A stretch of 62,036 bases of DNA, filler included, from Kipferlia bialata (taxonomy: Eukaryota), in NCBI GenBank assembly GCA_003568945.1. It is 4 parts of 4 records of this genome, joined end to end, with 100 filler letters (N's around TTAATTAATTAA, not from the genome) between each part and the next. Parts side by side here need not be neighbours in the genome. Positions count along the whole stretch, not along the records: positions 17,146 to 34,176 come from BDIP01000552.1; 3 more parts are not named here. One strand, 5' to 3'. Made by a program: the position numbers and the translations under genes. Shown in pieces: positions 1 through 27,032 of this stretch. How positions within the stretch are numbered: position 1 is the stretch's first letter; the number at the start of each line of letters is the position of its first letter. Under the pieces are notes generated by a model. The model was not told the origin of the DNA and made no database searches. It worked only from the letters and a program-made list of their open reading frames with translations.

Positions 1-48
1 GGGCGGTGAAAGACCCAAACCCCCCCCCCCCCCCCCCCCCCCACCCCA

Positions 49-1408: not shown

Positions 1409-3652
1409 ATGACCTACCTGGACTACCACCACGAGTGGCTGTTTGTGGCACGGGTTGTCAACTGCATCCTGCTCTCCATATGCTATGGTGTCACTAGAAG
1501 GCATGGGTCAGCCAAGGACACCAAGCGGTATCTCGGCTGGATACTGGCAATGTGAGTGATAGTATGTATATTCGACCCCCATCCAATCATTGGATTCCAA
1601 TGGGTGTGTTTTACTGGCCTCTCCCTTCCCTGTCATTGGTGCTGCTTTGTGCACTCATGCATGTACATCCCCCCCCCTCTCTCTCTCGCCCCCCCTCCCC
1701 CTCCCCTTCCCCCCAGGTACATCATCGCCGTTGTCGCTGCCTCCCTGTCCAACCTGGGTCTCTTCTCAGACGAGGCCATGTACAGGGTGCTGCCATACGA
1801 GGTACGCATACGCTGTGTCGGTATCCATGGTCAGTGTACGTGTGACTATATCTAACTGATGATGCCATCCAGAGTGCGTCTCTCTCCCTCTCTCTCTCCC
1901 TTTCTTAGCTCTTTATCACCCCCAAATGAATAGGTCAATTTTGTCATCTCCCCTCCCTCTCTCTCTGCATCTCTGCAATTGTCTTCACTCATTTACCGTA
2001 GGTGGGTAATACCATTCTCTCTCCTTCTTACCTCTCCATATACTTTCATACTCCAGACTCCTCTAATCTGTCTCAATCCATCAAAAGAATGTGTCGATGG
2101 AGTATGTCTCCTCCTACCCCAGGCGATTCTCGACCTCATCTGTTTCTCAGCCACTGTCTTTCTGCCTGTCTCACTCATGTTCCTGTATGTCCATGTGTTC
2201 AGAATCCTGCTCAACCCAAGGTGGACTGTCTCCCTTCCCTCTCTCTCTCTCTCTCCCCCTCTCTCTCACCCTAGCACAGTGAGGAAGGTGTACAAGGTGC
2301 TCCAGGTGTCAGGGCTAGTCTATTGTTGTTGCCTTCTAGGTACCATATGTGTTTGGACATATGTGCGTATGTACTCGGTCTTTGACTGTTAGCGCCGCAC
2401 AGACTGTAATCCCCTCTCCGTACTTCACTCTCTAGGTACCACACTCCTTTCCTGTCTGTACTTTATCATCTGTACTACTACCTAGCTGTCCCTCTCCCAC
2501 CCCTAGCCGTGGCCCTCTACCAGGGGGTGTACATGGCAGATGTACACAGACAGGGCTTCGAGTACTTCGTCCAGGTACGACATCAACGTCTCTCTCTTTC
2601 CTATATTCCATCACACAACTCTTTCCCTTCTAATACAATGAATATGTCTTTGACGCTCCTTCTGTCCGTGTTAGTTATATAGGTCTAGAGAGTCAACTTC
2701 TCATACATTGTTCCCTGTTACAGGTGTCTGGCCTCTCTTCCACCAGGTCCAGGACTCTGACCAGTTTGACAGGCACTACCATGGGGTATATAGCTGGTGC
2801 GTGTCAAGAGACTTGGTACATATACATACACCAAAGTACCAACTGTCACCAATCACCCTCAGGTATAGAGTACTCAGCAGCCTCGCCGTGTCCCAACTGT
2901 GAGTGGACTAGTGGCCATCTACAGCTGCATTACCCTATTTCATAACTCGTTACCCGTCCCATCTCCAATGCTTTCAAACACCCAGCGGATACTTGACGAC
3001 CACTCGTCGTATATTCAACATAGCCGATATTGGCAGATCTCCTTTGAACACAGCCTAACCATCCAGAACCTGCCTCTTAATAGGTCTGAAGTGGATCAAA
3101 CGGGGTTTTGAAACCAACCTAGACCACATGTGAGTGTACTTATTTACATATACCTTTTGGTACCAGGTCTTTCATATCCCTACCAGACCTGAGTGTATTT
3201 CCCTTAACACTGTCTGACCCCAGCCAGATGTCTGTGGCCACCAAGGACACTCCCACACCCACCCCGCTGACACCCCCACCCAGACGGGTGGTACTGAGCA
3301 AGCTGGACTTCATCACGTATGCATGCTCCGTGTACTGTGTGCTGTACCTAGGGGTGTCAGGGTCATACCTATTGAGGTGGGTATAACAACTGATAACATG
3401 TCACATGTAGACTTCAGTGGATCAGTCTCACACTTGACCGTCTACAGCAATCAAGTATGTTAGTGTTGCGGACGTAGTCTCCACAGCCTCCCTCTTGATA
3501 CCCTCACTGTCAGTAATAGCATCCCCCCCAACTTCTACCGATACATCCTTGTCCCCTGCACGTGGCTAGATGGGGCGATGCTGGCAGTGGTCATACTACC
3601 CGCATACAAGGGAAAGGGGAAGGGGGGGCAGAGGCGGGGTACTGCTGTGTAG
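1409..3652 (+). CDS. Multi-exon multi-pass membrane protein, 7TM/GPCR-like
   Basis: ATG 1409 MTYLDYHHEWLFVARVVNCILLSICYG; hydrophobic exons YIIAVVAASLSNLGLF, AILDLICFSATVFLPVSLMFLYVHVF, VLQVSGLVYCCCLL, FITYACSVYCVLYLGVSG; last exon YRYILVPCTWLDGAMLAVVILPAYK...TAV* (TAG 3650-3652). Confidence 0.65.
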
Positions 3653-3857
3653 GAATAGAGTGTAATAGTAATACACCAATACTTGTGACGACCACTAGTT
3701 GTGTCTCTTTAATCAAGTTGATTTAATGAGAAGCAATATAGATAATACGGGTATGATACTCTCTATGAAAACACAGAGACTCTCTGTGGGAGTCTCAACA
3801 AGTTACAGGAAAGGCATAGCCATCCAGGTGATTATGTTCCGGCTCCGCCCCCTCTAC

Positions 3858-6001
3858 CTAGACCGAGGTGGTGACGCCCCTCTTCTTGGCCTGGGACAGT
3901 GAGTGATACAGTGAGTGTGACAATGCAAATATACATCCCATGTATATAGAGTATATAGAGTAAGTGTGACACAAGACAATAACAGTGAAAAGTGCATATC
4001 AGATCAGCGTATATAGAGTTACTCTCCATATACCTTAGACGGTCTGAGCGGGTAGTACACCAGTGACATACACGTGTACTGTAGTACTGTGCCCACATCT
4101 AATAGCCACATCTGTGATGCCAGCGCACCCACCAGTGCTAGCACCGTGATACCAGCCGTACACACCACAATGACAGTGTACAGCCAGGGGAGGATGGCCA
4201 TCTTGTTTAGGGATCTACGCCTCTTGACACCACTTACCCCCATACTCCTGGCCTGCAGGGTACGTGTTGTCATCCTCCTCAGGAGGGCGATGGATGCCAC
4301 GACAAAGGCCATGAGGGCTAGGCATAGGGTGCCCAGGATACCCACATAGACGGCCCAGACCTACGCTGGTCAGAGATGCTGAGAGAATATACAAATTATG
4401 GGTGGACGTCAGAGAGAGAGGGGGGGGGGGGGGAAGCGCCCGTACCAGATCTGTGTGCCCATAGAACATGTCCAGGGTGAATCTATCCAGACCCCCTCTG
4501 TACATATCTCTGTAGACCAGGGTGTCCCAAGCATATACACACAGGGCGGCAAGGGTGAGGGCACACGATGATACCTGTGGTGAAGGCAAGAGTAGTGGTA
4601 CACAGAACAATACATGCCGTCACTTTCAATCGAGATGACGTATAAAGCACATGGTATAATGCATCATTCTATTTGAGGAAATGAAAATGGACTATAGTCA
4701 CTTTAGTGTATGAACTAGTACAGTACCGCTCACCTTGACCAGCCGTGTCATGAACCTGAATGCCTTGGGGGACACAACACCCCGGAACACCTGGGGTCGG
4801 GGGGAGGGATATCCAGAGGAGTAGAGCACACGTGTGTACCCACATGTATAAACATATGGATGTACGGGGGGGGGGGGGATCACTACCGATGTGTATTATG
4901 TATTTAAGTTGTCTCCACGTACCTGCACGTATACGACTATGAGTGGGAGTGACGTGTACACTTCCATACAAGTGGCGCAGAGGGTGATGGTGGATCGGTA
5001 GGGGAGAAGCTGGGTGAGGAATGGAAACAGAGGGAGAGAGAGAGGTACCACTGTACTTATGGGGAGTGGGCGAAGACACAGAAAGAATGGGGAGTCATGA
5101 CCACCCAAATGGGGGAGAGACGGAGTGGCTAGTTTACTATATCAATCAGCACACCTCAAATAGGACCTCCACGGGTATCTGCCTGGCCCAGTGTGATGTG
5201 TCTATCCTACTAGAGATCCAATAGACATAGGTACTGTAAACACAACCCCCTATGAGGCTGAGGGCTAGGGCAGCTGGGGGTAAGTGTATCAAGATATGCA
5301 TGGACGGGAGAGAGAGAGAAAGAGAGAGAGAGAATACATTCCCCCTATGAGGCTGAGGGCAAGGACAGCTGGGGGTGAGGGATGTGTATCAGTATATATA
5401 GATGTATATATATGTATATATCTATATATATGTATATGGGGGAGGGGAGAGAGAGAGAGAGAGAAAACGGACAGTCGTCTATGAGACTGAGACCAGCTGT
5501 GAGTATGTAGATATACGGGATACTACAAGTGGACATATTGATAGAGGAGACATATTCGTGAAGAGAGAGAATGAGAGGAGAGAGAGGGGGGGGATGGGGG
5601 GGATAGCTTGGGGATAGTCTATTAGCATACGTATATATAGAGAGGGGGGGAGGGACATTACATATAAGGTTAAGTGGATGGGCAGCTAAATGTATGGAGT
5701 GTCCTTGACAAGTAGTATATAATAGTGTATCAGAATGGGCACTGGATGAGAAGATGGTAGCGGGACGGGAACAAGCCAATACACTCTATGTATGTTGGTA
5801 CCAGAGACACAGAGACGGACACCTACCTGTCATGCCGTACAGACTGGCCCTGCCCCACGGGTTGTCCCTCCTGTGTCTGTGCATTTGGACGTAGGAGAAG
5901 GTCTCGGCACACATCCCCACCACCTTCACTCTCTCATACACCAGGCAGGCCAGGGTGAACACATCCATGGCTGAGAGGAGAAGACAGACGGAAGTGGACA
6001 A
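3858..6001 (-). CDS. Multi-exon multi-pass membrane protein, 7TM-like; convergent with the previous gene
   Basis: Starts MSTSVCLLLSAMDVFTLACLVYER. Later exons include VSSCALTLAALCVYAWDTL and GILGTLCLALMAFVVASIALLRR...MAILPWLYTVIVVCTAGITVLALVG...YTCMSLVYYPLRPSK|AKKRGVTTSV*. Confidence 0.65.
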
Positions 6002-6209
6002 TTTGCGTAGTATCTTTTCATGTGTTTTACCAGAATGTGACTAAGCAAAGTTTCCCACTACACGATATGACTCAGTCTACATATCTATATCGACACAACC
6101 CACAGTCTCCAGTATGGTTTCCTGGACTGGGATCCTACACTCTCTCACTCACACTAATGGGACCCTTTCAGTCCGGATTCCACCTCCCTCCACCTCTCTC
6201 TCCCCCAGT

Positions 6210-8056
6210 CTAGAACGTGACCCATGTCTGGCTGCCCCCTGTGCTCCACACAGGCTGGTCATGCACCTGGAGTGGGATGGAGTGGTGAGCAAGCGAGAGA
6301 TACTACCAATGTATACAAGGTAGACATAGGAGCCCTTGAACATGGGGACACACGTGCGTAAAGTGTCTCGTCATCTGTACCTGCACCCTCTCTCTGTCTG
6401 TCCCCATCCCCATCTCTATCTCTGTCTCTAGGGGTGCCTGGGGGAAGCCATCCATGATCTGCTTGGCCTGGTATGAGTGGGTGTAAAGATGGGTTGAACA
6501 GAGAGTTATGAACATTCACTCTGTAGTACAGTATAGGTACTATATGTACAACAAGGGGAATACATGTGTATACTACCTACCTGTCCACTAGATGGACTGA
6601 GTGCCTCCTGGCCCTTGGTGTAAAGGGCATCCCGGATGGAGAGAGAGAGGGGGCGCTTGACCTGGGAGGTGAGGGGGGGTGGGACAGTGTGACTAAGTAC
6701 TACTATAGCCTATCAATGGCCAGACAATGCAGGACAGAGCACCAAACTAAACCACAACTGCCACCCCTATCCATGTATACCCGTCCCCACCTGCACACTA
6801 GACGGGCTAGTGTTGAGCAGGGTGTCGTCCTGCAGGGGGGTGTCGGCCTCAACGCTCTTGGTCCTGGGGTCAGGGGGTGGGTACTGTTAGTGACTATATA
6901 CATTGCAACATATTCATGACGCGATCATTGGTACCTGTATTCCTAACAGTTAGAGCGAAAAGAAATAGTTGTTCGAGACAAATAAAGACGCTGTACCGGT
7001 CAGGTTACCATTGCTAGTACCCTGTTACACAGCTTGGTACCTGGGTACCCTCTTGAGACCCTGGTGCTCCCCTGTCTGGACGCTGGCTGGATGGTAAGGA
7101 GGGGAGGGAGAGGGACATACATATATACATTGGTCATCGATACAGAGAGAGAGAGAGTACCTGTGAATATGTCGATGTCCCTCTCACTCTCCATCATGAC
7201 CCCATACAGACAGGGGCCGTCTAGGAGCAGCACGTGCCTGGGGGTCAGCATGGTCATAGAAATAGAAAGATCATGTTGGAATGTGACGCACCAGCACCCC
7301 TTGCCCACAGCCACTGTCTGACTGCTGTACTCCACACTGCATATCTCACCCTCCCCCATACCCCACTCCACAAAGTCAGAGAGGGAGGACGGGATGGAGG
7401 GGGAGGGGGAGGTGGGGGGTGGGGTCCTGGGGTGAGGGTGGGAGAGGGAGAGAGAAGCTGTTGACATGGCTTTATGAGGCGAGAGATACAGTGACTACTG
7501 CATATAGTATATGTATATGTATATGCTGAGATACCCCTACCTGTAGAGAGTGAGTGTGGGTGCACATGAGCACCCACTGTATGTGGCATCACGGGCACAG
7601 GCAGGGTGGGACGTGACCTGGGGTTAGGGGGTACTGATAGTGTGGCAGAGAGTGGCTAGAATCTAGCCACTAGATCAAGAGAGTCAATGGCACTAGGAGA
7701 AACAATATAGTCTATGGAATAGAGGGCTGCACATGTAGCTACACGATAGAAGAGCGAAAGAGTTGTTTGAATACGTGTTAGTGAAAGTGAATGAATATGA
7801 TCCACAAGAAGACACACACTACAGACTCCACGTGACTCCAACCGCATATGGTGCCAGTATATAGAATGCCCTCACCTTTATAGACCCCCTCTCACACACC
7901 ACCTCCCACTGTGCAGTGGAGACCCCGTCTGCCACAGAGGCCAGACACACAGAACAAGGCAGGTGGGACTGGGGGTGAGGGGTAGTGGAAGTATCACCAC
8001 GCTCACTCAATGGAATACGCGTGACTGACGGCTCATACCTTAGTTGTGGTTTTCAT
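6210..8056 (-). CDS. Hypothetical multi-exon protein
   Basis: MKTTTK|SHLPCSVCLASVADGVSTAQWEVVCERGSIK| ... AKQIMDGFPQAPLETEIEMG ... VHDQPVWSTGGSQTWVTF*, with canonical GT donors and CCCCAG acceptors. No family recognised. Confidence 0.5.
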
Positions 8057-8454
8057 CAACACTGTGAGTGGCGCTATATGCTAGGTTGTGTGTAAGATCG
8101 TCGGTGTCTAGAGAGCTGTGTCACTGCGGGTCATAGCCGAGGTACATATCTACAGTTTGGACATGAGTCACTGTAGTATCCAAGGAATGGGGCGAGCACT
8201 ACTGGTGACAAGCTGTAGAGTGTGGAGTGTACAGTCTCTGGAACACGAAGTTCAGACCTGCATGTCACTGTTGTGACAAGCATTTCCAGTGAGACACCTA
8301 TTAGCGCAGAACTTCATCCATCTATTCTCCGAGAGCACTGGCAATGCCAGTCTGGCATACCGTCTCTTGAGTCTCTAAAGACCAGTCGTCATTGTTGTTG
8401 TGCCCTATATACCAGCTCCAACTACTGTAGGTCCCCTCCCCTCTCACTCCCTCT

Positions 8455-10123
8455 CTACCCCAATGGCAGCCACGTAGCTGACAGAGGTCTCCCTGTCACT
8501 GGTGGTCAGAGACAGTACACACTCTAGTATCGCACTGATACACAATATATACACACATACTACCAGACACCCACCTTGTGATGTTCCCAGACTGTGCATA
8601 CTTCAGCATGGAAACAGATATGGGGATGCCTGGGGTTAGATAGAGTGTCACTGGGCACATATACACTTGGAGTACAATACATATACCACCCACCTGCTGT
8701 CTCGAATGTCTTGAGCACCAGGCTGATGGGGAACCTGCCGCAGATGGTGTTGTGGGTGGAGGCCATGTACGAGGCAAAGGGGGCAGACCCACCCCTGGGG
8801 TCAGAAGGGTTAGAAAGAGAGAGAGCGTCTCCCTCGGTATCCACTGATATGTATATATGCACTCCCCCCCACTTGATTGCCTCCACCCCGGCCATGTCCA
8901 GGTCCTGTATCTGGGTGTGCAGGGGCCTCTGGTCTCTGACCACCCCGGCATCCTCAAGGGTGTAGCCAAAGCGGGCACCTGGGGTGAAGGGGTAATACTG
9001 GTGTCTATCTTGTTAGCAAAAGTGTATACGCCTTGAAATCTCCGTGCCCACACACATACCGTAGTGGTAGATCAGAGATCTACACATACTCATAGTCAAT
9101 TACCATACCGTAGTGGCAGAAGTCTGATGACACGACCCACAGGTTGGTGGGGTCCTTGGCCAGGGTGGACAGATACTCAGCAGCGGTGGCTACAGAGGCC
9201 TGGTCGTCCTGGGGGTGAGGGTGTGGGTGGGGGGTACAGTGCCTATATCAATATTGAATACGTATTCTACAATATATACTGGCAGACAGAAGGGGAGAGT
9301 ACAGTGACTCAACCCCTATACATCTATCTGTCTCCCCCCACCTGGAATGACACAATCATGGGCAGGATGGGCATGTCTGACCCCAGGACAGCATGCACAA
9401 AGGGCAGCATCAGCTGGGGGTGGGGGGTCAATACATACTCAGTAGTATGCATCGGAGGGAGAGGTATTGGTATTGGATGCACAATAGTATATATATACAC
9501 ATAGTATATACAAACACTGGCTACACCGTACCTCCAGGTCGTGCTCTGCCTCGTCGGCTGTGTTCTCATTCCACCTAGGGGTGAGGATCAGTGCCACTGA
9601 TCATGATAGAGAGAGCTTGAATACGTAGACAGTGTATATAGGTATAGGGAGAGTAATAACAAGTAGTATTCTAAGGATTCCATTCATATACTTGTACACA
9701 CAAAGACATATATGTTCACACATATATACCTGGCCACGCTGCACCCCTCCACCACCTCCTTGGCCAGTGTAGTGTCCACCTGCAGGGCACCACCTGGGGT
9801 GGGGGATGTATATGATAGAATGGACACTATATTCACCTTTACAATATACATATGCACCTGACATACAACAGCTAGTGTAGGGACCAGGGCACAACCATAT
9901 ATATATGATATGTTATACCCACCCGGTGTGTTCCACTCCTTGAAGCGTGTCACCAGCAGTCCCCTCTGGTGGGACACGTGGTTGGGGCCTAGCAGGATGA
10001 CACGGCGGAACATGGGGGGTGAGGGGTGTAGCTGTATATAGCTGTACCTTTGAACACACACACATATATAATCATATATTCTCTCTCTTTCATACACACA
10101 TAAATATACACGCATATATATAC

Positions 10124-10159
<36 letters not shown>

Positions 10160-10579
10160 TCATAATACGTACTGGTCCTTGGGAATGGCAGCAAAGGAGT
10201 GTCCAGCCACAGGGCCAGAGTAGGAGTAGCCTGGGGAGGGAGTGGGGAGTTAGAGAGAGAGAGAGAAAGTGAGAGAGAGATAGACACACTGTGCATGGTG
10301 GCCAAAGAGCACCTCGAGATATATGAATCAATATACATACATGTTATATTAGAGGAGGGAAAGAGAAGATATATATATACTAGACAGGCTTAGACAATGA
10401 GAGAGACAACCAGGGGGGGGAGAATGGGAGAGATGACTGTAGTGTGTACTACACTCCTCTTGAAGGAGAGAGAATGAATAGAAACGTTGGACACAGTGAA
10501 GCAAGCTGGAAGGATATAACACCAGTCCCTACCTGCATGGGGTGCAATCAGGAACCTGAGGTTGGGCACCTCCTGACAG

Positions 10580-10623
<44 letters not shown>

Positions 10624-10877
10624 TGTAGACACATTCTCTCTGCCACACACACACTCCCCCCCACCTCCTGCCCACTGGATGTGAGGTACTTGGCCACATC
10701 TCTGGCACAGTCCACACCGTTGGGGTACCACGTGCCTGGAGGTGAGGGGAGGGGCACATAGATGTACAAACACTGTATACAATGCCTTTCCCTCGTGTGC
10801 CTCTGAGGTTATCAAGCAAGGTATCAGGACTAAGAGAGAGTACCTGCGTGGGTGGCTGCTCTGTACTGGGGTACCAT
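8455..10877 (-). CDS. MEMO1: Protein MEMO1 (AmmeMemoRadiSam protein B family)
   Basis: Family motifs in order: YRAATHAG|TWYP, LRFLIAPHAG|YSYSG, RVILLGPNH, QLMLPFV, VSSDFCHYG, HNTICGRFPI, YAQSG, TSVSYVA. Confidence 0.92.
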
Positions 10878-11152
10878 CTCTCTCTCTGTCTGTCTCTCTA
10901 CTCTTAGGAACGGTGGCTGTTGAGAGCAGCATCTGTTTTTCTCAACTCGATTGAGAGTAAGGGTTGACTCAGCCTGAGAAGAGACTATCTCTCCACTCCT
11001 ATGGTTAGCACATCTATGCATCCTACGATGGTTGTGGAGGAGTGTGACGCTGAGGTGTCATGATGCCACTCTCTTTCGGACACCCACGTGTATCACACCA
11101 TTCAATCTCGCCACTGACAGAGAGAGAGACTTCACCAAACACTCTTGAAGAG

Positions 11153-13425
11153 ATGGGAGGAGGGATGGGTATGTACACGAGGGCGCCCCCCCTGCAGGGT
11201 AGGAGAAGGAGAAGGTATGCATCCACCCTCCGGGTACACGTATGTATACACATGTGTATCAGACCCATGTGTATATGTCGCTCAGCTCCAGATTCATCCT
11301 CAGGCGGTACCCTGTGTATGCTGAGTCTGAGTCTGATCTGGAGGACCTGTACCCTGAGTGGGTCAATGAGAGGGAGAGGGCGATAGAGAGGGAGAGAGAG
11401 GCAGCACTCACTGTCGGAGCAGGTAGGGATAGACCTATTTCTCGAGTAACACATATACTCATACACTTGCATAAACTTAGCGTCTAGGCCCACTCTCCTA
11501 GTTCTCTCTCTTCCTCCCTCTGGTCCTGTCTACCCATATACTGTATATGATATACATGTAACCCCAGGCACCTCCTCCCTCCCTGCCCCTCTCTTCTCTG
11601 CCCCCATCAGAAGTGGTGCCAAGAGGATAGTGCTCTGTGGGCCACCAGGGTCTGGGAAGGTATGGTGACATATAAGATTCATTATCCTCACCCAGAGACC
11701 CCCTAATAGATATAATGCCCACTGCTATCACACCTTTGGCGTGTAATAATGCAGATATCAATCCATATTCTGCTAGTATCCCACGCCAGGGCACTGTGTC
11801 CCCTGCCCTCATAGCGGCATACGGCATGGTGCACATAGCACCAGGTACAGGGGATAGTAATGTGTTACACTACTAGTGTGTCTATAGAGTTTCACCGTAC
11901 CCATAGGCCCCCACCCTCAGGTGACATGCTCCGAGAGAATGTGCAGAACAACACACCCCTGGGTAGGAAGGTAAGATCCCGACTGGTAATGCTCTATAAC
12001 AGATTACCCTACATGGAATGGAAGGTATATGTCTGTAACAGCACCTGTACTCATTCTCTGTCTGCGTCTCTCTCGGTATATCCAGCCCCTGTACTGTCTC
12101 ACCCCATGCCTCTGCCTTCATGGAGAGTGGGGACCTGGTACCAGACGACATCATCATACAGATGGTGCTGGGTGAGTGTATATATATGAATTGAACCCAG
12201 CTGGCCTCTCATCATCTCTCAGATAGTGTATCTCTGATCCATGAATACGTATATAACATATTCTTGTAATGTAGCACTATCCATGTTACATACTCACCAG
12301 CAGACCGCCTTGACAGACCTGATGTGGCCATGCATGGGTTCATACTCGACGGGTTCCCAAGGTGTATTCCAACTACCTAGAGAATGCTGGTCAATGTAAC
12401 ATAGTGATATTACAGTGTACTCTGCCCTCACCCCCAGGAACGTGGCCTATACTGGTCAGTGTAGCATAGTACCATTATCTTTGTCTACTGCCCCCACCCC
12501 CAGGAACGTGTCTCAGGCCCACTGTCTCCTGGACGCAGGCATAGTCCCCACACACGTGTTGGTGCTGGAGGTGGGTGAAAGTGACGCTCCAACACTCTAT
12601 CACTATGTCTACTCGGCTGGCTACCTGACCCCCAGATCCCCGAGCCTGAGGTTGTGCGTAGACTGGGGGGCAGACTGGTGGACCCACAGACTGGGGACAC
12701 ATACCACAGAGAGTGAGGGCGTGATAGTGTATATTCAGAGAAGGAGTCATTCACATACTCTATTCTCTCCTCCACATATATATGACAGTGTAGCTGACAG
12801 AGCCCTATTCCCTCTCTCTCTCCATCCACTCAGCCCAGGTTCCGCCCCCCACCCCCTGGCCCCATCTCTGACAGGTGCACCACCAGGCCTGACGACACTA
12901 TGGACAGTATCAGACACAGACTCAGGGTGTACAGGGGTAGGGATATATCAACCATATTGAAGTATAATAGGGCCAAATAACTATAGTGTAGAGTCTACCC
13001 CCAACCCCAGCCACCACCCACCCCGTTGTCTCTGTCTTTGAGAGGCATGACTGCAACGTGTCCCCTGAGATCATTCGGTGGGTGTCTACCATATATGCCT
13101 AGTAGGCATTGCCTACCCATATAAATTCTACTATCGGATCACACTAGTGAATGTCACAGTGCCCATATCCTCTCACCTCAGGGTTGATGCCTCCCTAGCC
13201 CCCTCTGACGTCGCCCAGTCCTGTCTAGCAGCACTCCTGCCACCAGCAGAGAGAGAGGCAGAGAGAGAGAGGCTGGCTGCTCTCAAGGAGAAGGGAGAGA
13301 AGGAGAGGGCAGAGACTGAGAGACTGCGTGCTGAGAGAGAGAGAGTCAGCAAGGAGAGAGAGTGGAAGGCTGCTGCTGAGGGGGCTGGCTTGGGGTCACT
13401 CAACGACACCCTGGCTCATGTGTGA
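11153..13425 (+). CDS. Adenylate kinase with N-terminal extension and charged C-terminal tail
   Basis: P-loop RIVLCGPPGSGK|GT, HIAPG|DMLRENVQNNTPLGRK, FMESGDLVPDDIII, GFILDGFPR, RLGGRLVDPQTGDTYH, TRPDDT, VDAS; stop TGA at 13425. Confidence 0.92.
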
Positions 13426-13682
13426 GCAACTACTCTCACTTTACACTGCTATGTCTCCATATACGAGTATGTTGGAATGCTCCTGACTCATAAATGAAAT
13501 AGAAACCATCCCTGATAGAGTTGAGGTCTTTGCAAATACATATACATCCACATCCCACTGAGATCGGATACAGGATGGTATCTATTCTGATCCACCCAGG
13601 CACCCTCCCCACACTCTCTCCTTCTTACTGATACAATGTAAATACACGTTCGAACTACACCAACTGATACCTCTCTCCCTCT

Positions 13683-14874
13683 CTAGATGGGCTCCACATA
13701 GGATGGGGGGAAGAACCCTGTGAGGGTCTCGCCATACTGGTTGGTCTTGGTCCCACTCACCCAGCCACCCTGCAGGGACACAATCTCAACGACGTCACCC
13801 GCCACAAGGTCGAGCATCCTAGGGGTCAGGGAGAGAGAGAGAGAGAGAGAGACGTATACATACTCATATGGACTACCACTCACCTGTCATCCTCGTATGT
13901 GAAGTCGTCTATGCACCGGCACCTCATGCCGGGCACAAGCTCCACCTCCTCCACCTCCTCCTCTGGGTAGTACTCCTCCTCCTCAGAGGCCTCAACTGCT
14001 TGGGCACCCGGCACAACGCCCTCTGCCTCTGCCTCTGCCTCCTCCCCCTCACTCTCAGGGGCCATCATAGGCGGGGCAGGGCTGTCTCCCTCCTCCTCCC
14101 CCTCCTCGCTGTGGGCACTCTCCCCCTCTGCCTGACCCTCAAACTGGGGTCTAGAGAGGGCAGAGTGGGCACGGGCCACGTAGGGTGTGTGTACGTAGTA
14201 GGCATCCGCCTCAGACATGGCGTCCTGGGGGGTGAGGGGGGAAGTGTGAGAACAATGATGATGTGTATAGGGTAGCTATGATGACACCCACCTGCTCTGT
14301 GGGCTCGTACTCCTCCTCCTCCACTATGACAGAGGCCATGTGGTGGGGGACAGAGGAGCCTGGGGGGTCAGGGGGTGGACAACGTTGGAGAGAGAGAGAG
14401 GTAGAGAGAGAGAGAGAGAGAGAGTGAGAATGTACCTGGTGTTGTGATGGGGGCACTGGACGGCTGGGGCTGGGTGGCAAACATGTCGTTCCACCTGCCC
14501 ATGAACCTGACCAGGGTGCACAGCACAAGGGACTTCTCGCCCTGGGGGTAAGAGAGAGAGGTAGACAGAGGGATAGAAACCTGTACCTTGTGGCATGACA
14601 GCACCACTGCGTCTCCCTGGGGGGGCTTCACCCTGAACCTCTTGGGGTCTGAGGGCATGGGGTCCAGGGACAGGGCAGAGCCTGGGGGGTGAGATGGAAA
14701 TAGATAGGAATATACATGTATACTAATATTCATGGTGAACGTACCGAGGGGGAATGAGAACACGGGCTCTCCCTTGCCTCCGAAGCGCCTTCTCTTGTGT
14801 GCCTCCACCCCCCTCAGAGAGAGTGTGGCCACAAGGCGGATGAAGTCCTTGGCGGCGGTGCCTGGGGTGAGAGG

Positions 14875-14906
<32 letters not shown>

Positions 14907-17000
14907 CTGACAGGAGGGAGACACACGTGGTCCTTCTATCCTCTAGATGTACATTCCCTACACACCTGTCCTGAGCTTGAGCAGGTACACGGCCTCGCCC
15001 TTGGTGATGGCTCTGTCGACCCTGGGGTTAGAGGAGGATGCGATAAACCACAAAGTGGTACTTAAAGGCACTCTAAACACGCCACTCACTTCTTGGCTGT
15101 GTCTGGGGTGGGCTGGTCCACTGGGGGTATGCCCATGGGATATACGGCAGAGGGGGAGACATGGGGCTCAGAGGGGGCATAGGCTCCGTCTGACTCAGAC
15201 TCGTCTGGCAGCTGGGCCATGGCCATCTCGGCCTCCTCTCTCTCTCTCTCTCCCTCCACACCAGTCTCCACCCCACCTGGTACACCACCGTATGTCACTG
15301 TGTCTGGGGTGTAGCTGGGCTCGGCTGGGACAGGGGCCGGGGCCTCCTCCCTCAGCTCCACCTGTCTTACTGGCTGCATGGTGGCTGCCAGGGAGGGGTG
15401 TGCCTGTGCCTGTGCCTTGGGTACGGTAGAGGGAGAGGCAGAAGTGACTGGGGGCGGGGTGCCCCTCTCTCTCTCCTCCGGCATCACAACCTCCACCTCC
15501 TGCAGCGTCATCTCACCCATGTTGGGCCCTCTCTCTCTCTCCCTCACCCCCAGGTCAATGGTCCTGCTCAGCCCCTCGTCCTCTCTCTCTGCCTCTCTCT
15601 CCCTCTGTCTCTGCCCGTCCTCTATCTCCCCAGGCCTCAGCATCTCAGCCATCACCACAGGCTCAGCTGTCCTGGCAGCCACAGCCATACTCATGCTGCT
15701 ATCCCTCCTATCCACAGCCATGCCCTTGGGGGGATACTCCCTGCTGTCACCCCCCGACAGCACCACAGGCTGGGAGGGTAGGGGTGGGGGGGCCCTCCTG
15801 CGCCTGGAGCTCTGGGACAGTCTCTCTCTCTCTCTCTCCCTGTCCCTAGTGTCTGGACTGGCAGGGCCTGGGCCGGGTCTGGCACTGGCCTACAGGGTAA
15901 GGTGACAGCTGGGTGACATAGCGTATATACACACGCATACAACCATATATACTGCGATGTGTAGCATGCCCCCCTTACCTGCTCAGGTGAGTGTGCCGCC
16001 GCACTCTCAGTTCTGATGGACTCCAGGATGTCACGGCGCTGGGTGTGAGAGAGTGCCATATGCATATATATACTACACACACTCATCACCATCCAGACCC
16101 TGTACCTGGTTGTCGAGTATCGCCTTGAGCTCTGAGGCTGTGAAGGTGGCCCCGCCCTCGGCCTCTCTCTCCCTCTCCGTCTCTCTCTCCATCGACGCCA
16201 GGCTCTGTCTCTCTGTCATAGCAAATGACCCCATACCCCTAGAGGGACCAAGGGGAGGCAGTGCGGTGTGGGTGTGTGCGAATGATGCCTGTGCGGCAGG
16301 GGCTGCCATGGGTGTCTGGTTGTACCTGCCCATAGAGACAGACCCAGCGGTTGGGGACGCATTGAAGTTGGGGATGGAGTGTCTGTGCACTAGCTGGGGC
16401 CTAGGGGCAGCATTGGATGTGGTGGTGTCATAGACTGGGCTACGTTGTCTCTGCTCTGCAGTGACTGAGGCAGAGAGAGGGCTCCTCACCAGGGACACGC
16501 TCCTGTCCCTCTCCCCCTGTAGCTCCCCCCCTGTCACCATAGGTGTACCTGGGGTGCTGAACACACTGCCCCTCACCCCAGCCCTCCGCATCTCACTCAG
16601 AAGGTGGTCACGGTCAGCACCTGGGGGTGAGGGCGAGGGGGTGCAGGGGAGAGATACATATAGGAGTATATGCATATGTATCCTATGTACTATTATCCTG
16701 TGCACCCACCCGATATGCCTGGCCCTGACACACTCAGCATGAGCCGGGGCCCAGCGGCCAGGGCGGCACTGACCAGGGTGTCCACACCACCCACACTCAG
16801 ACGGTTGCCACCCACGTGCAGGGCCTGGGAGGGTGAGGGAGGATGATGCAAGCAGCGGTAGAGCTGCACATACATACACGATTATGAAAAAAGGCCCCCA
16901 CCTTGATGGATGGCACTGAGTGGAGCACTCTGGCCAGGGGCAGAGAGGACACATCCGACAGACCACACCCATTGAGACACAGGGTGTGCATGCCTAGGAG
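13683..17000 (-). CDS. LRR-like / PH-like / C-terminal SH3 protein; 5' truncated by contig end
   Basis: C-terminal SH3 RCRCIDDFTYEDDR|MLDLVAGDVVEIVSLQGGWVSGT...GFFPPSYVEPI*. N-terminal RI-type LRR-like segments LCLNGCGLSDVS and LHVGGNRLSVGG. Possible PH-like fold in exons ~14440-15020. Long low-complexity linkers. Confidence 0.8.
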
Positions 17001-17006
17001 TGAGAC

Positions 17007-17037
<31 letters not shown>

Positions 17038-17045
17038 AAAAAGAA

Positions 17046-18546: not shown

Positions 18547-21500
18547 TCACTCTGCGTGTCTGGTTGACATCCCAAACACAGTGGCACCCCTCTCACTGTC
18601 ACTGGTCTCACTCTCCACGCTGTCAGTCTCACTCTCTGCTGTACTCACTGACTGGGCATCCATCTGGGGGGCTAGGGGGACACTTGGGGCCTGGGGGTAA
18701 GGAAAACACTATACATATATAACATACATTCAGTATGTGACAAGGGGGACACTTGGGGCCTGGGGGTCAGAAACAATAGAGACAAAATAATGCATAATAC
18801 ACAGTGTATATACCACATATATCTCTGGGGGGGAATTTGAAATGCTAGGGCCTAATGGTTAGTAACATCCTTCGACACAGCGACACAGAAAGACATAAGG
18901 GGGGGCAGGAAGGTCAGTATTAATACCAGTCTTAGCATATGTGTATATATCATATATTGCATATGCCTGTGGGTACCCCCTGCTAGCCCTGGATGACTCC
19001 TCTGTTGACATACATATATATAACAAGTATATATATACTATATGTATATCTTAGCATATGGATATATATATCACGTGCATATACCTGTGGGTACTCCCTG
19101 CTGGATGACTCCTCTGTCGACACACATATATATAACAAGTGTATTATACACATATCAAGTACATAGTATGCATGCAGTATGTAGTGTGTACCTGAGGATA
19201 CCCCCTGCTGGATGACTCCTCTGTCGACACACTCCCACTGCCAGGTGGGGTGGCCTGGCTGGTTAGATATACACACATACATACATATACATATACATAT
19301 ATACATCCGTGGTATACACACTTAGGTATATGGTATATATATGTAGGTATATGTAGATATATGATATATACAAATGATATGTACTATCACTAATCAAATA
19401 TACACTCCCCACCTCTCTCTCCGCCATGGCCTCTCTCATCACACACATACATACATATATAATCATATATATATATAAATCTATATGGTATATATGTTTT
19501 GATGTTACTCTTACTCCCTACCTGTCTCTCCGCCATGGCCTCTCTTAGCATCTCTCTCTCAAGGGAGTCCTGAGGGTTAGACACAAGTGCAAAACATATA
19601 TATATATATATATATACATAGACATATATATATATATATTAATGTACACATACCTCACTGTCAGATGTCTCTGATGAGGATGCACTGTCGTTGACCATTG
19701 CTGACTCCATGGCAGAGGGTCTCTCAACAAGACCTCCGGAGACCTGAGGGGGTTAGACTATGCTACTATTTACGTATGGTTATCTTTGACATGCCCATGC
19801 TATACAAGTAGTCGGATATATGTATGTATATATATATATGCGGTACCTCTCTCTTGACTGCACTCAGGGGTGGAGGGGCGGCACTCAGAAGGTCAGGCAG
19901 GCCTGAAGGTTAGAGATACAAACTGTACATCGTATACCACCATACCTACGAGTAGGTCATCCACTCAAGATACTAAGGATACTCAATATACATATGTACT
20001 TGCCTGTATAACAATATACACATATACTGATGATTACTATATACCTGCCAGCAGGTCATCCACCCCAATTGACCCCTCTGCGTCCCCCTCTCCGTCTCCC
20101 TCTCCCTCTCTATCCCTGTGTGTTGCCTCTAGTGATGCCTCCATGGCAGAGTGCTCATCGACAGACAGCATAGACAGCTGACTGGCCCTAATATGTTAGA
20201 ATAGAAAGATAGAGAGAGAGAGAGAGAGAGATGCCTNNNNNNNNNNNNNNNNNNNNNNNNNAGATAGAGAGAGAGAGAGAGAGAGATGCCTCCATGGCAG
20301 AGTGCTCATCAACAGACAGCATAGACAGCTGACTGGCCCTGGTATCAGTATATGTAGGTTCATATATATATATATGGAGAGAGAGAGAGAGAGAGAGAGT
20401 GATGCCTCCATGACAATATATAACCACAGCACTATCTATATATAACCACGCTCATCGACAGACAGCATAGACAGCTGACTGGCCCTGGTGTTTTAGAATA
20501 GAAAGAGAGAGAGAGAGAGAGAGAGATGCCTCCATGGCAATATCTATATAAAACTATAGTACTATCTATATATAACAATGCTCATCAACAGTCAGCATGG
20601 ATCAGCTGGCTGATGTATATGAGAGTAAATACGCAACATACCTTGCTGCAGGGTGGATGGACCCAAAGGAGTAGTCACTGTCTCCACACTCAGACTCTAG
20701 GGTGCCTGGGGTTATTATAGTGTATATACATAGGATCATATATAGGAACATACATAGGAGGTATAGGGTGCATGTGTACTAGTAGGTTAATGCAGTAGTG
20801 TATACTATATATCCATATTATACTAATGAAGATGTGTGTCAATACCTGTCTCTCTGTCTAGCCCGAGGTCCCTCTCTATCCTCTCCCTTGCATTGCAGGG
20901 AGGGGGGGTGTTGGTGGCTGGGGGGTCAGACAAGATAACACGTATACATTAGTATATCAATAAGTATAGTAGATGAGTATAGTAGATGAGTATAGTAGAT
21001 GTAGTAAGACACATTGAGTATATATACCCATACCTGGGAGGGGTGGCCTAGAGGCTCCGCCCTTGCCAGGGAGGGGCTTACGCATGGCCCTGGGTGTCAG
21101 AGATAGAAACATGTACAGTATCTATATCTATACATAGCGTAGATATGTACATGCATATCTATCAATATACCTAGGGTCCATGGGTGACCTTGGTGCACAG
21201 GGTGAACGGGGTGCAATGGGGGGCCTGGGGGTGAGAAGCAAGAACAGTTATTAATCACTAACTAGTCATTTACCATATATGTGTATTGTAGCGCAGTATG
21301 TGTACTATATATACCTAGGACTGGCCGTGGGTGGCAGTGGTGACCTGACAGACTCTCTGGCCCTCAGTCCCACCACACCGGCCTTGCCACGTGGTGCCTC
21401 TCTCTCTCTGTCTCTCTCCCTCTCTCTCTGACCATCTCCGAAGGGTGCCTGCCTGCGCATGTCCCTCTCATGGTCCCTGTCTCTCTTTCTAAGGGTAAGG

Positions 21501-24500
21501 ATCATAGTACAGTTAGTATATATAGGTCCCTGTCTCTCTTCCTAAGGGTAATGATCATATCATAGTGAGTATAGATAGTATAATTGGAAGTATATGTGTG
21601 TAGTAGTGTAGTAGTATAGATCTCTCGTGGTCCCTGTCAGTATCAGTATCAGTATCTCTCTTCCTGGGGGTCACTGATGACTCCAATAATGTAGTTGGTA
21701 GAATAGTATGTATTGGCAGATATATTACATAACGTCTAGTAATGAAGAGTCATTGAGATTTCCCACCTCTCTCTGGCCCTCTCCCTCTCTCTCTCTCTCT
21801 CCCTCTCCCTCTGCCTCTCATCCACTGAGTCACTCGACTCCTCGGCCAACTCAGAGTGACGGAGATAGGAGCCTAGAGTTAGGTAATAAACCAGTAAATA
21901 TAGTATAAAAATATAAACTCGGAGTGACGGAGATAGGAGCCTAGAGTTAGGTAATATATTAGTACATAGATATATACAAATTATCCCACCTGAGTTGAAG
22001 GACCTTCCCTTCTTGGGCCCTCTCTCTCTCTCCCTGCCCCTCTCCCTCCCAGAATCAGCATCTCTGTCTCTCTCTCTCTCTCTGTCTCTTCTGCCACGGT
22101 GTGTGAAAGTATCGGCTATGACACTCGCACGGATGGCCTTCCTGAGGTCATTAGAATAGGGATATAGTCATTAGAATAGTGACAGAGTCATAGTGAAAGG
22201 GTCATCTCAGAGCACTCTAATGTACATACCTCCCCCCTCTCCTTGGTCTGTACGTGTCATCCTCAGAGTCAGAGTCAGAGTCATCGTGTCTAGAGGTGAG
22301 TGTATATATACATGTCTAGAGAGATGTAGATACAACATATATACAAATATGCATATACTATACTATACCATACTATACTATATACATGTCATCCTCAGAG
22401 TCAGAGTCAGAGTCATCATGCCTGGGTGAGTGATTCTCTTATAAACATTACTATAATCTACCAGATATACACATACTTAGTATATATATACCTCCTTCTG
22501 TCTCTCCTCTCCCTCCCACTCCTGTGACTCTTGGAGAAGCGACCCCTGCCGCGAGACCTATTGTCATCCTGAGGGTTAGGGATGAGAATTATACACATAC
22601 ATGCAATGCATTATCTGTCGGTGTCGTACTGAGGGACAGTGACATTACAAATATAGTATATACTGAAGACACAGAATATACAAAGTAGTTATACCTCACT
22701 GTCGCTCTCAGACTCAGAGGGGTTCTCTGGGTTACCACTCAGGGCAAACTCACCACTTGGCCACTCCACCCTGCTGTACACAATGCCCTGGGAGTTAGTA
22801 ATATACTATGTCAGTATCAGTAATAGATATGTGCTGCACTCAATGCATATGATTCAAGGAACGTGTCTTAGTGAATAGACTACGCCTAAATACACACTAA
22901 ATATACCTTAGCATCGTGCTGCACGGCCTGGCCACAGAAGGCACGCAGACCTGGGGTGAGGGTATATACTATACAGACATAGTGAAAACACCATGTTACA
23001 CTATGTGGACACTGTATACCTGCTGCACTGCTGGGGGTGACTGTGGCCTGGTACACACTTATACATTCATATATATATATATGTATATACACTTATATGT
23101 ACTCTATATACTATATACACTACACATTAAGTGTACCTGCCGCACTGCTGGGTGTGACTGTGGCCTGATAGAGTTCATTCAGACACTTGAGAAAGACACA
23201 TAATAATATATACACACACACATATATATATATGTATACTTCCACAACACATACCTGCTGCACTAGACGGTGTCACTGTAGCCTGATACAACTCGTTCAG
23301 ACACTTGAGACAGACACACTTGGGGGCATACTTGGCCAGGAGGGGGTCCTAGTATGAGTTTGCGTAGGTATACATATATATATACATATACATAGTATAT
23401 ATATCATATATCATATATGTATATAATAAATACACAGTATATATATATATATACATACATAGTACATACATCATATATTGTGTACACAGTATGTATATAA
23501 ATATACTTGGGGACATACTTGGCTAGAAGGGTGTCCTGGGAATAGTACATATATACATTGTGTACATATACACAACATATGCAGGTATAACGAGTGGTAG
23601 TATATATATACAGCCCTCCATACCTGCGGCATCAGGAATGCTGGCCTTAGTGCTGGGTACTTCTTGTGTCCCATGGTGCTGAACCTAACTGGGACAGAGG
23701 TGTGACACATGTCGCACAGGCCCTAGAAGTTAGATGAGTGTATGTACAATATATACACTTCCACATACCGCCTTGACCAGTGCCTCCTGCAGATAGACAT
23801 GATACATACGCTCATACACACACACACACACACATCTATATATATATATATACGCATAGGAGTAACTATGAATATCTATGTGTACCACATACCGCCTTGA
23901 CCAGTGCCTCCTGTGGCTTGGCCTTGATATATATATACATANNNNNNNNNNNNNNNNNNNNNNNNNNNNNNNNNNNNNNNNNNNNNNNNNNNNNNNNNNN
24001 NNNNNNNNNNNNNNNNNNNNNNNNNNNNNNNNNNNNNNNNNNNNNNNNNNNNNNNNNNNNNNNNNNNNNNNNNNNNNNNNNNNNNNNNNNNNNNNNNNNN
24101 NNNNNNNNNNNNNNNNNNNNNNNNNNNNNNNNNNNNNNNNNNNNNNNNNNNNNNNNNNNNNNNNNNNNNNNNNNNNNNNNNNNNNNNNNNNNNNNNNNNN
24201 NNNNNNNNNNNNNNNNNNNNNNNNNNNNNNNNNNNNNNNNNNNNNNNNNNNNNNNNNNNNNNNNNNNNNNNNNNNNNNNNNNNNNNNNNNNNNNNNNNNN
24301 NNNNNNNNNNNNNNNNNNNNNNNNNNNNNNNNNNNNNNNNNNNNNNNNNNNNNNNNNNNNNNNNNNNNNNNNNNNNNNNNNNNNNNNNNNNNNNNNNNNN
24401 NNNNNNNNNNNNNNNNNNNNNNNNNNNNNNNNNNNNNNNNNNNNNNNNNNNNNNNNNNNNNNNNNNNNNNNNNNNNNNNNNNNNNNNNNNNNNNNNNNNN

Positions 24501-26995
24501 NNNNNNNNNNNNNNNNNNNNNNNNNNNNNNNNNNNNNNNNNNNNNNNNNNNNNNNNNNNNNNNNNNNNNNNNNNNNNNNNNNNNNNNNNNNNNNNNNNNN
24601 NNNNNNNNNNNNNNNNNNNNNNNNNNNNNNNNNNNNNNNNNNNNNNNNNNNNNNNNNNNNNNNNNNNNNNNNNNNNNNNNNNNNNNNNNNNNNNNNNNNN
24701 NNNNNNNNNNNNNNNNNNNNNNNNNNNNNNNNNNNNNNNNNNNNNNNNNNNNNNNNNNNNNNNNNNNNNNNNNNNNNNNNNNNNNNNNNNNNNNNNNNNN
24801 NNNNNNNNNNNNNNNNNNNNNNNNNNNNNNNNNNNNNNNNNNNNNNNNNNNNNNNNNNNNNNNNNNNNNNNNNNNNNNNNNNNNNNNNNNNNNNNNNNNN
24901 NNNNNNNNNNNNNNNNNNNNNNNNNNNNNNNNNNNNATATATACTAATATACGTACCGCCTTGACCAGTGCCTCCTGTGGCTTGGCCTTGACTGTGCCAA
25001 GGTCCTTGACCTGCACGTTGCACCTGGTACATTAGATGATGATCTATACATATATTATTACTATAAATATATATATATATATATGTACTAATTGGTACAC
25101 TTGTACAGTGATGTCCAGGTCCTTGACCTGCACGTTGCACCTGGTGTTAGGATATGGAACACATATATATAGAAACAGGTATAGGAGGTGATACAAACAG
25201 TAGTATGACAGTATATATGTGCCCAGGTCCTTGACCTGCACACTGCACCTGGTGTTAGAATAATATACGTGTATATATACGCACACACACATATATATTA
25301 ATCTATGCTTATGGTGGTACAACTCCCGTACCTCCTAATAGATGCAAGCACTATGACTAGCACTAGACTGCTGGCCAGGAAGAACATGCTGGGTATATAT
25401 ATATATACAGTACTACACACTATATACGTGTATCACTACAATACCTTCTGATACTAGCCAATACGATGACCAATACAAGACTACTGGCCAGGAAGAACAT
25501 GCTGGGTGCCACCAGTTCAATGACAGTGACAGTGTCAGCAGTGACAGTCTCTAGGATGTGGGCCTAAGGGTTAGAGACATAGTAGTATGTGCATAAATAC
25601 ATCGCATTCATAGAGAAAACATATAGCTATATGGAATGTCAGTATTGGCCTTGTGTTAATCCATATGTACACTCCTCCTCCCATACCTGTGCATACATAG
25701 GTGGTAGCACCACGTATCCATGCCCATCCACCCACTGTGTCTGGAGGTTGATGGAACAGAGGACAGTCTGATGGTTAGTATGTATAGAGAGAGAGAGAGA
25801 GGGAAAGAGGAAGAGAGGTTGATGGAACAGAGGACAGTCTGGGGGTTAGTATACACAGACATAAAGGGAGAGACTATGACAGCCCATACCGACGCTGTCA
25901 GACACACGTATCCCCAATTGACACTATAACATTATCATATATAACCCACCTGCTCCGTGACATAGACACCCCCATCTGTCACCACTGGTAACTGCAGGGA
26001 GGTGGACGCTGGGGGTGAGGCATAAGACATCATGCATATATATCATACATATAGATGTAAGGAATACAAAGTTCTGGTACGTACTCAGGTCCAGTTCGTC
26101 CCCACTGATGAGTGTCCTCAGACTGGACAGATCCACAAAGGGGGCACCGGCCTGAGGGTAAGGGACTGTGAATAGTATATATATGTACTATATAATACAG
26201 ACTATACTATATATGTGTTATATAGAGTATACAAGGTATATATCCACAAAGGGGGCACCGGCCTAGAGGGTAAGAGCGGAGACTACTACATCCTGGGTAC
26301 CTTTATACTGCTGCATTATACTCTTAGAATACTATGAATACATATATACACTGTACCTGACACAGCCCAGTCCAGTATGTGATGGGGTCATCCTCATCGA
26401 AGGCAAAGGCCGCACCCGAGGGGTCACCCTGCTCATCGGTCTCAGTGCCTGATGTAAGGGTATATATCACACTATGGTAGTGTGATGGCGTTTGCACATT
26501 TCATTAAGAGTTCAATACACTATACACAGTATACACCCATACCTGCCAGCCCAGGGTATATGTCCAGAATCTCGGGTGCAGTGTATATCACGGTGCGTGT
26601 CCTCTCGGGATGTTCATCCTTCACAGTGTCCATTACACTGTTAGCACTGTTAGCACTGTCACTTGATGCACTATCCACTGTATCTGTGCTTGTGCTCTGA
26701 ACCTCAAAGGCGATGGCTGTGGAGTTGGCGGCGAGGAGACCTGGTAGGTAAGTATAATCAAGAACATACATATACATATTCAAACATACACATGTATGCG
26801 TATGCTATTCGACGTACTGAGGTGTGCTGTGTCTGGCCTGTCACTGGGTGTGCATATCACTACATCCAGAGTGGTGAGGGCAGTGTCAATTGGGTTGCCC
26901 TGGGGGTAAGTGAATTATGAATATATCCTCATCATCTACTCCATTATGACATCGAACCCATACATATACTCTCTCTCTCTCTCTTAACATATCAT

Positions 26996-27032
<37 letters not shown>

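Follow-up and report, generated by a model that had tools for sequence, protein, structure and literature searches.

Partial copies of exon ends with a protein-coding divergence signature in introns of Kipferlia bialata

Exon-end copies around a focal exon

We analyzed a 62,036-nt window of Kipferlia bialata DNA, in which several scaffolds are joined by spacers; all counts of echoes, introns, and families given below refer to this window. A gene on the minus strand with about 58 modeled exons (18547–34110; gene model) contains, in 19 of its 47 scored introns, partial copies of the ends of adjacent exons together with the copied splice site. We call these copies echoes: donor echoes repeat the end of an exon and its donor, and acceptor echoes repeat an acceptor and the start of an exon. 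The echo pattern is real, intronic, and window-wide. Its divergence from the exons is mostly silent, as in DNA that codes for protein.

Two sets of contigs were compared with the window. Run X1 consists of DNA contigs assembled with a different assembler, and its reads may be those behind the published assembly. Run X2 was taken to be RNA by guess and was chosen since nine GT-AG joints were seen in 20262–23370. Contigs of both runs show presence and not absence, and rare forms are dropped from them. Reading frames were taken from a gene model in which the echoes were masked; the model without masking took echoes for exons. For all 10 families that were checked, the frames matched the public protein KIPB_003048, in which each echoed peptide is found once, and two exons of the window matched K. 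bialata KIPB_003050 and KIPB_003048 with 100% identity.

The focal exon of the host gene (23255–23348, minus strand; 94 nt, DPLLAKYAPKCVCLKCLNELYQATVTPSSAA) has its own acceptor and donor, with GT at 23254, and its open frame continues through six downstream exons. The 304-nt intron that follows (22951–23254, minus strand; acceptor at 22951, the joint being deduced from X2 record coordinates) holds two donor echoes. In the direction of transcription, the sequence consists of the used donor GT with a 54-nt TA-rich filler (23201–23254; GC 0.24); echo 1 (23137–23200), which repeats the last 64 nt of the exon, has no acceptor at its start, and is followed by an unused GTACAC with GT at 23136; that unused donor with an 81-nt TA-rich filler (23056–23136; GC 0.22); echo 2 (23020–23055), which repeats the last 36 nt of the exon and is followed by an unused GTATAC with GT at 23019; and a 69-nt intron core (22951–23019; sequence and gene model) ending in a branch point and acceptor, CTCACCCCAG. 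All of these elements are on the minus strand, as is the next exon of 44 nt (22907–22950), which is placed by the gene model and the X2 joint 22786>22906.

The sequence-only reading had described three versions of this exon end with almost exclusively silent divergence, and the three strings quoted there are present letter for letter on the minus strand. The exon and echo 1 differ in nine codons, eight of them silently (a TCT/AGC switch included) and one by a C>F change, and echo 2 differs from the exon in six codons, all silently. Three whole codons, again all silent, differ between echo 1 and echo 2. The three-version echo is thus real, but its presentation as a single case did not stand, since the window contains 55 such families. 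A fourth copy, absent from that reading, lies on the acceptor side (23505–23537, minus strand) and comprises AG and the initial 31 nt of the focal exon without a donor of its own; it is skipped in the gene model. This copy (23535–23505) carries two silent and two amino-acid changes and ends at the point where echo 1 starts, so that the two together rebuild the 94-nt exon with a 1-nt overlap.

The protein encoded by the host gene is long, with one hydrophobic stretch (exon 25563–25445) and an Arg/Glu/Ser-rich tail. Pfam gave no match for the four single host-gene exons tried. A protein search with one host-gene exon found no homologue and also missed the host gene itself, and is a weak test of a paralogue as the donor of the echoes.

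The focal echoes on one DNA molecule

A single 846-nt X1 contig (contig 8) ran over 22423–23195 with 0 differences at a depth of 425, the other seven listed pieces having depths of 410–471. Echo 2 with the fillers that flank it, the greater part of echo 1, and three exons farther downstream all fall within this contig, and no alternative letters were found among the listed X1 pieces. The longest identical stretch shared by the copies is 15 letters, and 22423–23195 contains no 30-mer that recurs in the window, so a k = 31 graph could not have stitched separate molecules together here. Between echo 1 and the true exon (23196–23254), the linkage rests on the gap-free assembly and on the spliced contig that joins the exon to the next one; the listed X1 pieces include none over 23196–23370, a hole that proves nothing.

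These data bear on the possibility that alleles or strains from separate molecules were chained by the assembler. Such chaining would suit the published assembly, a gapped short-read SPAdes assembly of 51 Mb with 124,912 introns according to the available part of the genome paper (PMC5874029), and also the position of the echo 1–exon link outside any listed DNA piece, with X1 possibly being the assembly's own data. One true scaffolding duplicate does exist in the window: a perfect 54-nt duplicate around a single N at 28496 (28442–28550), an overlap artefact excluded from all counts. However, the independent contig is unchanged over the focal region at full depth, 30-mers are not shared, the available part of the genome paper gives a single host coverage peak of 130–150x (PMC5874029), and the echoes lack the remaining exon part expected of a second haplotype. 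We regard an assembly artefact as highly improbable; the focal echoes are real DNA and not a haplotype artefact. The argument of the sequence-only reading that three versions speak against a two-haplotype artefact is supported by the X1 contig at normal depth and by an X2 contig that skips both echoes. The situation it had named as refuting, with each version on a separate molecule, does not hold for echo 2 and most of echo 1; the echo 1–exon link lies outside the listed DNA pieces.

Skipping of the echoes and preservation of their splice sites

The introns of the window are of the GT-AG type, with CT(A/C/G)AC located 2–4 letters ahead of YAG. The X2 spliced contig matched 23253–23350 with 0 other letters, skipped all four echoes that it crossed, and carried the exon's letters, rare forms being dropped from contigs. 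In X2 record 10, the pieces 22694–22786 and 23253–23350 are separated by 43 letters, which fits exon 22950–22907 alone, and X2 depth was zero over 22966–23173 in the echo region. Two acceptor echoes further downstream in the host gene, both on the minus strand, were also skipped: that of exon 22289–22230 (22383–22422) by the joint 22289>22492, and that of exon 21872–21767 (21916–21941) by the joint 21871>21989. The branch and AG score of the latter echo equals that of the used site (3.3 vs 3.3), yet it was skipped. Splicing used the first donor and the final acceptor. Wherever RNA was checked, the main transcript skipped the echoes, which are intronic.

The splice sites of the echoes were kept, with GT in 33 of 34 and AG in 35 of 36 cases, and the echo scored at least as high as the used site in 22 of 34 donor and 21 of 36 acceptor cases. 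The clearest decayed site was found in an outer donor echo at 18966 (minus strand), which has GC for GT and a 6-nt insertion. Echo sites as strong as the used ones would be expected if the echoes were coding now, that is, if silent variants entered mRNA by way of minor or stage-specific isoforms, by joining inside the repeat, or by frequent swapping of exon ends at the DNA level, and purifying selection acted on them directly. The splicing data, in contrast, speak against such use. Besides the skipping of four out of four echoes, the offsets were evenly distributed modulo 3 (24/22/18), and use of the echo site kept an open frame in only 8 of 64 cases. A usable acceptor was present at the start of 1 of 31 donor echoes, and the ends of acceptor echoes showed no excess of donors (p = 0.48).

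Alternative 5′ or 3′ splice-site extension was rejected on the basis of the 8 of 64 cases that were in frame and stop-free. Recursive splicing was rejected because a usable branch point and AG preceded the inner GT at only 1 of 35 donor-echo ends. Degenerate acceptors at the starts of donor echoes were likewise unsupported; branch-like scores just ahead of donor echoes were slightly raised (p = 0.0015), and this weak excess was all that was seen. Seven of 37 acceptor echoes start with GT. Use of the echoes in ordinary splicing is thus disfavored, because they have no second site, lose the frame, are not recursive, and are skipped.

Distribution and geometry of the echoes

A diagonal scan at offsets of 30–700 detected 104 pairs, compared with none in either of two control bands shifted by 3000 and 8000, and the echoes are therefore not due to chance. 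Curation of the scan yielded 55 families with 73 echoes, and the full exon was modeled at one copy in all 55. Echoes occurred in 40 of the 161 scored modeled introns, about a quarter; by scaffold, 2 of 54, 19 of 47, 9 of 27, and 10 of 33 introns carried them. The contrast in density between 1–17045 (2/54) and 17146–58400 (38/107) may track gene type or recombination rate. At 30200–30208 (minus strand), a short match consisting of PTQ and a donor corresponds to the end of exon 30379–30306 but falls short of the threshold of the scan; the number of short echoes is probably underestimated.

The median offset, echo length, and filler length were 107, 29, and 72 nt, respectively (65 pairs). In 67 of 68 pairs, the position relative to the copy forming the full exon was downstream for donor echoes and upstream for acceptor echoes. 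On the intron side, likeness above random extended to 14 nt for donors and 30 nt for acceptors, and no farther where tested; beyond the splice signals, the two intron sides were hardly more alike than by chance, as 5 of 65 pairs reached p ≤ 0.05 (3 expected), with medians of 17 vs 16 (p = 0.01). An introner or transposon with target-site duplication, and fillers derived from mobile elements, were rejected, since two 670-nt far-offset bands of the window gave 0 matches.

Six exons have echoes on both sides. The summed lengths of the two halves minus the exon length were −8, −20, −1, +1, −27, and −7, so that the halves overlap by at most 1 nt in all six, and four of the six meet within 8 nt (p = 0.016–0.029 for a threshold set after seeing the data). 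As a lead only, this suggests that the two halves mark one break into which the present exon and its intron flanks were set. Of the one-sided families, 43 had no matching other half, save for four weak candidates, two of which held up; the idea that most one-sided echoes have a hidden second half is not supported.

This geometry bears on a history in which whole exons were duplicated, were once used in a mutually exclusive manner while silent changes gathered, and later lost one end of one copy. Such a history would account for the silent bias without other alleles, the fillers (median 73 nt) have about the length of a minimal intron minus one signal, and the raised branch-like scores ahead of donor echoes are in line with it. 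Decay of whole duplicates, however, predicts all four arrangements of echo and exon, whereas 67 of 68 pairs fall into two; no complete duplicate pair was found among the 55 families, and the one-sided families lack their other halves. We consider this history quite improbable.

Several exon ends are present in arrays. In another gene, one exon end has five donor echoes (39855–40543, plus strand). All five copies encode the same 15 residues, the six variable sites are all silent and form a mosaic, and the fillers belong to two related types that occur intermixed. One gene on the minus strand holds further arrays of three and four copies (53977–55034 and 57801–58131), two of them on the donor side and one on the acceptor side; in the acceptor-side array, copy length falls outward from 36 to 32 and 27 nt.

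Coding signature of the echoes

Exon-echo statistics were obtained for 69 of 73 pairs; two pairs across an N gap and two gapped at the anchor were dropped. Mismatches between exon and echo at codon positions 1, 2, and 3 numbered 27, 19, and 131, respectively, with dS of 0.29, dN of 0.031, and dN/dS of 0.10. The dN/dS ratio was 0.09 for donors and 0.12 for acceptors, and 0.11 when one echo per family was used (53 of 55). Adjacent echoes compared with each other gave 3, 6, and 35 mismatches, dN/dS of 0.08, and dS of 0.285 (16 pairs, not all independent). Of the single changes, 84 of 119 were silent, against 38.6 ± 4.7 (peak 56) in a spectrum-matched null in which each base change was kept and its position moved.

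These values leave little room for plain tandem duplicates between sister chromatids that decay neutrally, with the silent bias coming from changes in the exon, mutation bias, or the picking of pairs. The single-junction tandem geometry is what such duplicates would show, and the scan does favor well-kept copies. Nevertheless, when a neutral echo was simulated beside an exon allowed silent changes only, with the same trimming, the share of third-position mismatches was 0.44–0.47 and at most 0.63 in 160 runs, against 0.73 observed; the spectrum-matched null peaked at 56 against 84; echo-echo pairs, which share no coding branch, still have dN/dS of 0.08; and third positions showed no directional GC bias (50 vs 43). 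Neutral duplication is largely refuted and, in our estimate, very improbable. In simulations where the echo was also constrained, the third-position share was 0.84–0.85. The observed value lies between the two simulations, indicating that both versions were coding during most, though not the whole, of their divergence.

A clonal lineage that codes with one copy at a time should, by our reasoning, show dN/dS not much below 0.5. A ratio of 0.1 requires either present use of the echoes or divergence as working alleles on different chromosomes. Present use is favored by the changes private to echoes, which are silent-biased (16 of 25, p = 0.001), and by the five-copy array, where six of six variable sites are silent despite diverged fillers. 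On the other hand, private amino-acid changes gather in the outer echoes: the 11 outermost echoes carry 7, compared with 2 for 16 inner echoes and 2 for 11 exons (p = 0.028). Together with the splicing data, this makes it unlikely, although by no means negligibly so, that the echoes are coding now. Equally unlikely in our view is that they are in-frame spare exon ends forming a working system under present selection, swapped at the DNA or RNA level by a route based on Dmc1 and Rad52, with a turnover that builds and renews introns.

Divergence at fourfold sites was uniform over 52 pairs (57/265, χ2 = 44, df = 51, a test of low power), which is the pattern that sampling from a single allele pool would give. 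One uniform level would also result from one or a few hybridization or polyploidy events, the echoes then being scars of later homogenization and not of ongoing exchange. The intact splice sites and low dN would in that case suggest a similar and recent age, and the difference among scaffolds in echo density (2/54 vs 19/47, 9/27, and 10/33) can be counted in its favor. Several observations oppose it: the arrays need three to six versions, with three states at some sites; divergence between echoes equals that between exon and echo; the outer copies look older; and 17 of 69 exon-echo pairs are identical. We rate such events as a little less likely still than present coding use.

Possible origin of the echoes

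With present use by ordinary splicing disfavored, recombination between diverged alleles is left. The explanation that we favor, though with only slightly better than even confidence, is that each echo is a partial tandem duplicate in which recombination with diverged coding alleles supplied, or refreshes, the exon-like part, and that half an exon is tolerated as it is not recognized. A jump back of about 107 nt would duplicate some 72 nt of intron along with an exon end and its splice site, either by ordinary short tandem duplication or by homologous repair with one seamless and one end-joined side. The exon-like part would be taken from, or later exchanged with, alleles that differ by about 0.3 at silent sites; the unequal exchange or gene conversion responsible would be limited to the region of homology, that is, the exon end and the first 10–30 nt of the intron. 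Only half-exon duplicates would survive, the spliceosome pairing the nearest acceptor and donor across an exon and ignoring a piece with one site; such cross-exon pairing is the explanation of half-exon survival that best fits the skipping in X2. Repeated events would drive older copies outward, where amino-acid changes would slowly accrue.

Two forms of this process may both act. In one, a break would be repaired by invasion of the homologue at the exon, about 100 nt would be copied across the splice site into the intron and end-joined to the other end of the break, with the old exon end staying in place. The other form starts from an older tandem duplicate, which would be refreshed by unequal exchange with alleles; it fits the five-copy array at 39855–40543 with its related fillers and six mosaic silent sites. 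At the focal exon, insertion of the present exon may have split one older version at a single point, leaving its halves as the upstream copy and echo 1. Two features of exchange between alleles, a mosaic array and intron-side identity that fades by 14–30 nt, were observed. The K. bialata entries in the available part of PMC8516963 include Spo11, four Dmc1, five Rad52, and PolQ, but no Rad51A, and metamonads are described there as lacking Ku end joining; Dmc1 tolerates mismatches according to the part of PMC8682777 examined. This gene set makes an allele-exchange route plausible but does not show it.

A number of observations weigh against recombination between diverged alleles as the origin of the echoes. 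The diverged alleles themselves are putative. No second allele was seen: X1 had no other letters, X2 gave only two records, both at least 99% alike, and at the 80% threshold no second copy of the locus was present in the contigs of either run, which are presence-only data. A scan of metagenomes for another allele gave one hit only (L001:404–466; 21 residues at 62%), located in a continuous GC-rich coding sequence unlike Kipferlia and taken as unrelated. Sex in K. bialata is not demonstrated in the portions of the literature examined. The scan for pairs favors well-kept echoes, and the intact echo sites and all-silent array fit present selection as well. In the five-copy array, several differences separate the filler ends but the echo next to them has no amino-acid change, and either frequent refreshing or present selection is needed to explain this combination. 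As for the junctions, echo length shows no correlation with filler length (rho = 0.03), indicating a jump without fixed length; fillers shorter than about 45 nt are nearly absent, for which the explanation does not account; and dinucleotide-repeat seeds are not in excess at echo-filler junctions (34% vs 33%, p = 0.76). Finally, two-sided exons are no commoner than chance by a rough estimate from family and intron counts, an N gap lies within one of the four meeting cases, and with two additional weak partners the halves are 70–80 nt apart.

Comparison with known systems

Mutually exclusive tandem exons are neighboring exon copies under purifying selection that diverge silently. The echoes share with them a signature of purifying selection between copies (dN/dS 0.10) but are partial, have one splice site, do not keep the frame, and are skipped in the transcript. 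In the silent conversion cassettes of avian immunoglobulin genes and antigenic variation systems, untranslated partial copies are kept alike and in frame by recombination with an expressed copy, and amino-acid diversity is stored at special loci. The echoes, unlike these cassettes, store almost no amino-acid diversity, sit in introns of many unrelated genes, and include a splice site. Recursive splicing and intron gain by AG|GT duplication involve extra splice signals inside long introns. Donor-echo ends resemble recursive-splicing sites in having AG|GT, but a usable branch point with AG is present in only 1 of 35 and no new intron is made.

The introns of the window conform to the fornicate type, with GT-AG borders and CT(A/C/G)AC 2–4 letters before YAG; in fornicates, the branch point is fused to the 3′ site (PMC6679479, part consulted). 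A close counterpart in mechanism is found among vertebrate duplications attributed to break repair by synthesis-dependent strand annealing (SDSA), with junctions that are non-homologous. As far as the available part of PMC2671141 (Pace et al. 2009) describes them, these are short linked copies of up to 619 bp that may hold exon pieces and splice sites, stem from nearby DNA of the same chromosome, number about 800 per human genome, and have microhomology or filler at their ends. The echoes have in common with duplications by SDSA or alternative end joining a short copy close to its source (median offset 107 nt). They differ from SDSA duplications in occurring in a quarter of the modeled introns, always head to tail about 107 nt apart, in being centered on splice sites, and in their dN/dS of 0.1. 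Neutral decay from an identical copy, as SDSA and alternative end joining would leave it, was not seen in the simulations or the echo-echo comparison (dN/dS 0.08). At the junctions there was no repeat-seed excess, two-sided exons showed gaps of 0–27 nt, and a check of microhomology needs an unduplicated allele. The echoes work like repair-mediated proximal duplication joined to gene conversion, apart from the lack of neutral decay.

The string "duplicat" has 0 occurrences in the main texts of PMC5874029 and PMC6679479, which in these portions do not mention duplicated exon ends. A literature search, mostly of titles and abstract starts and including few subscription papers, returned no description of the echo pattern. 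Parts of the mechanism are known; the product, at such density and with such a signature, is undescribed in the literature searched.

Other features of the window

The KIPB_003050 gene region (46424–51882, minus strand) encodes a kinase domain, a weak HECT-like match, and a C-terminal IBR-like match; its exons are longer, and the diagonal scan found no echoes in it. An open frame without introns at 58511–62035 (plus strand), of at least 1175 amino acids and with a reverse transcriptase domain (PF00078, E = 4e-22), is probably a retroelement.

Implications

A protein-coding signature in non-coding DNA at such density is unexpected. On the practical side, gene finders will mistake echoes for exons, as the unmasked model did. 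The echoes also offer a natural test of splice-site choice, in which full-strength decoys about 100 nt from the used sites are ignored by a reduced spliceosome; this points to exon definition in a protist with short introns. They indicate a possible route by which introns grow in steps of about 107 nt while their splice sites are renewed. If the explanation by recombination between diverged alleles is true, one apparently uniform genome would store thousands of samples of past alleles (40 of 161 introns, extrapolated to 124,912) and would allow a direct estimate of silent diversity, about 0.3. It would also be evidence of recombination or hidden sex in a free-living relative of Giardia, in a group without Rad51A and Ku end joining.

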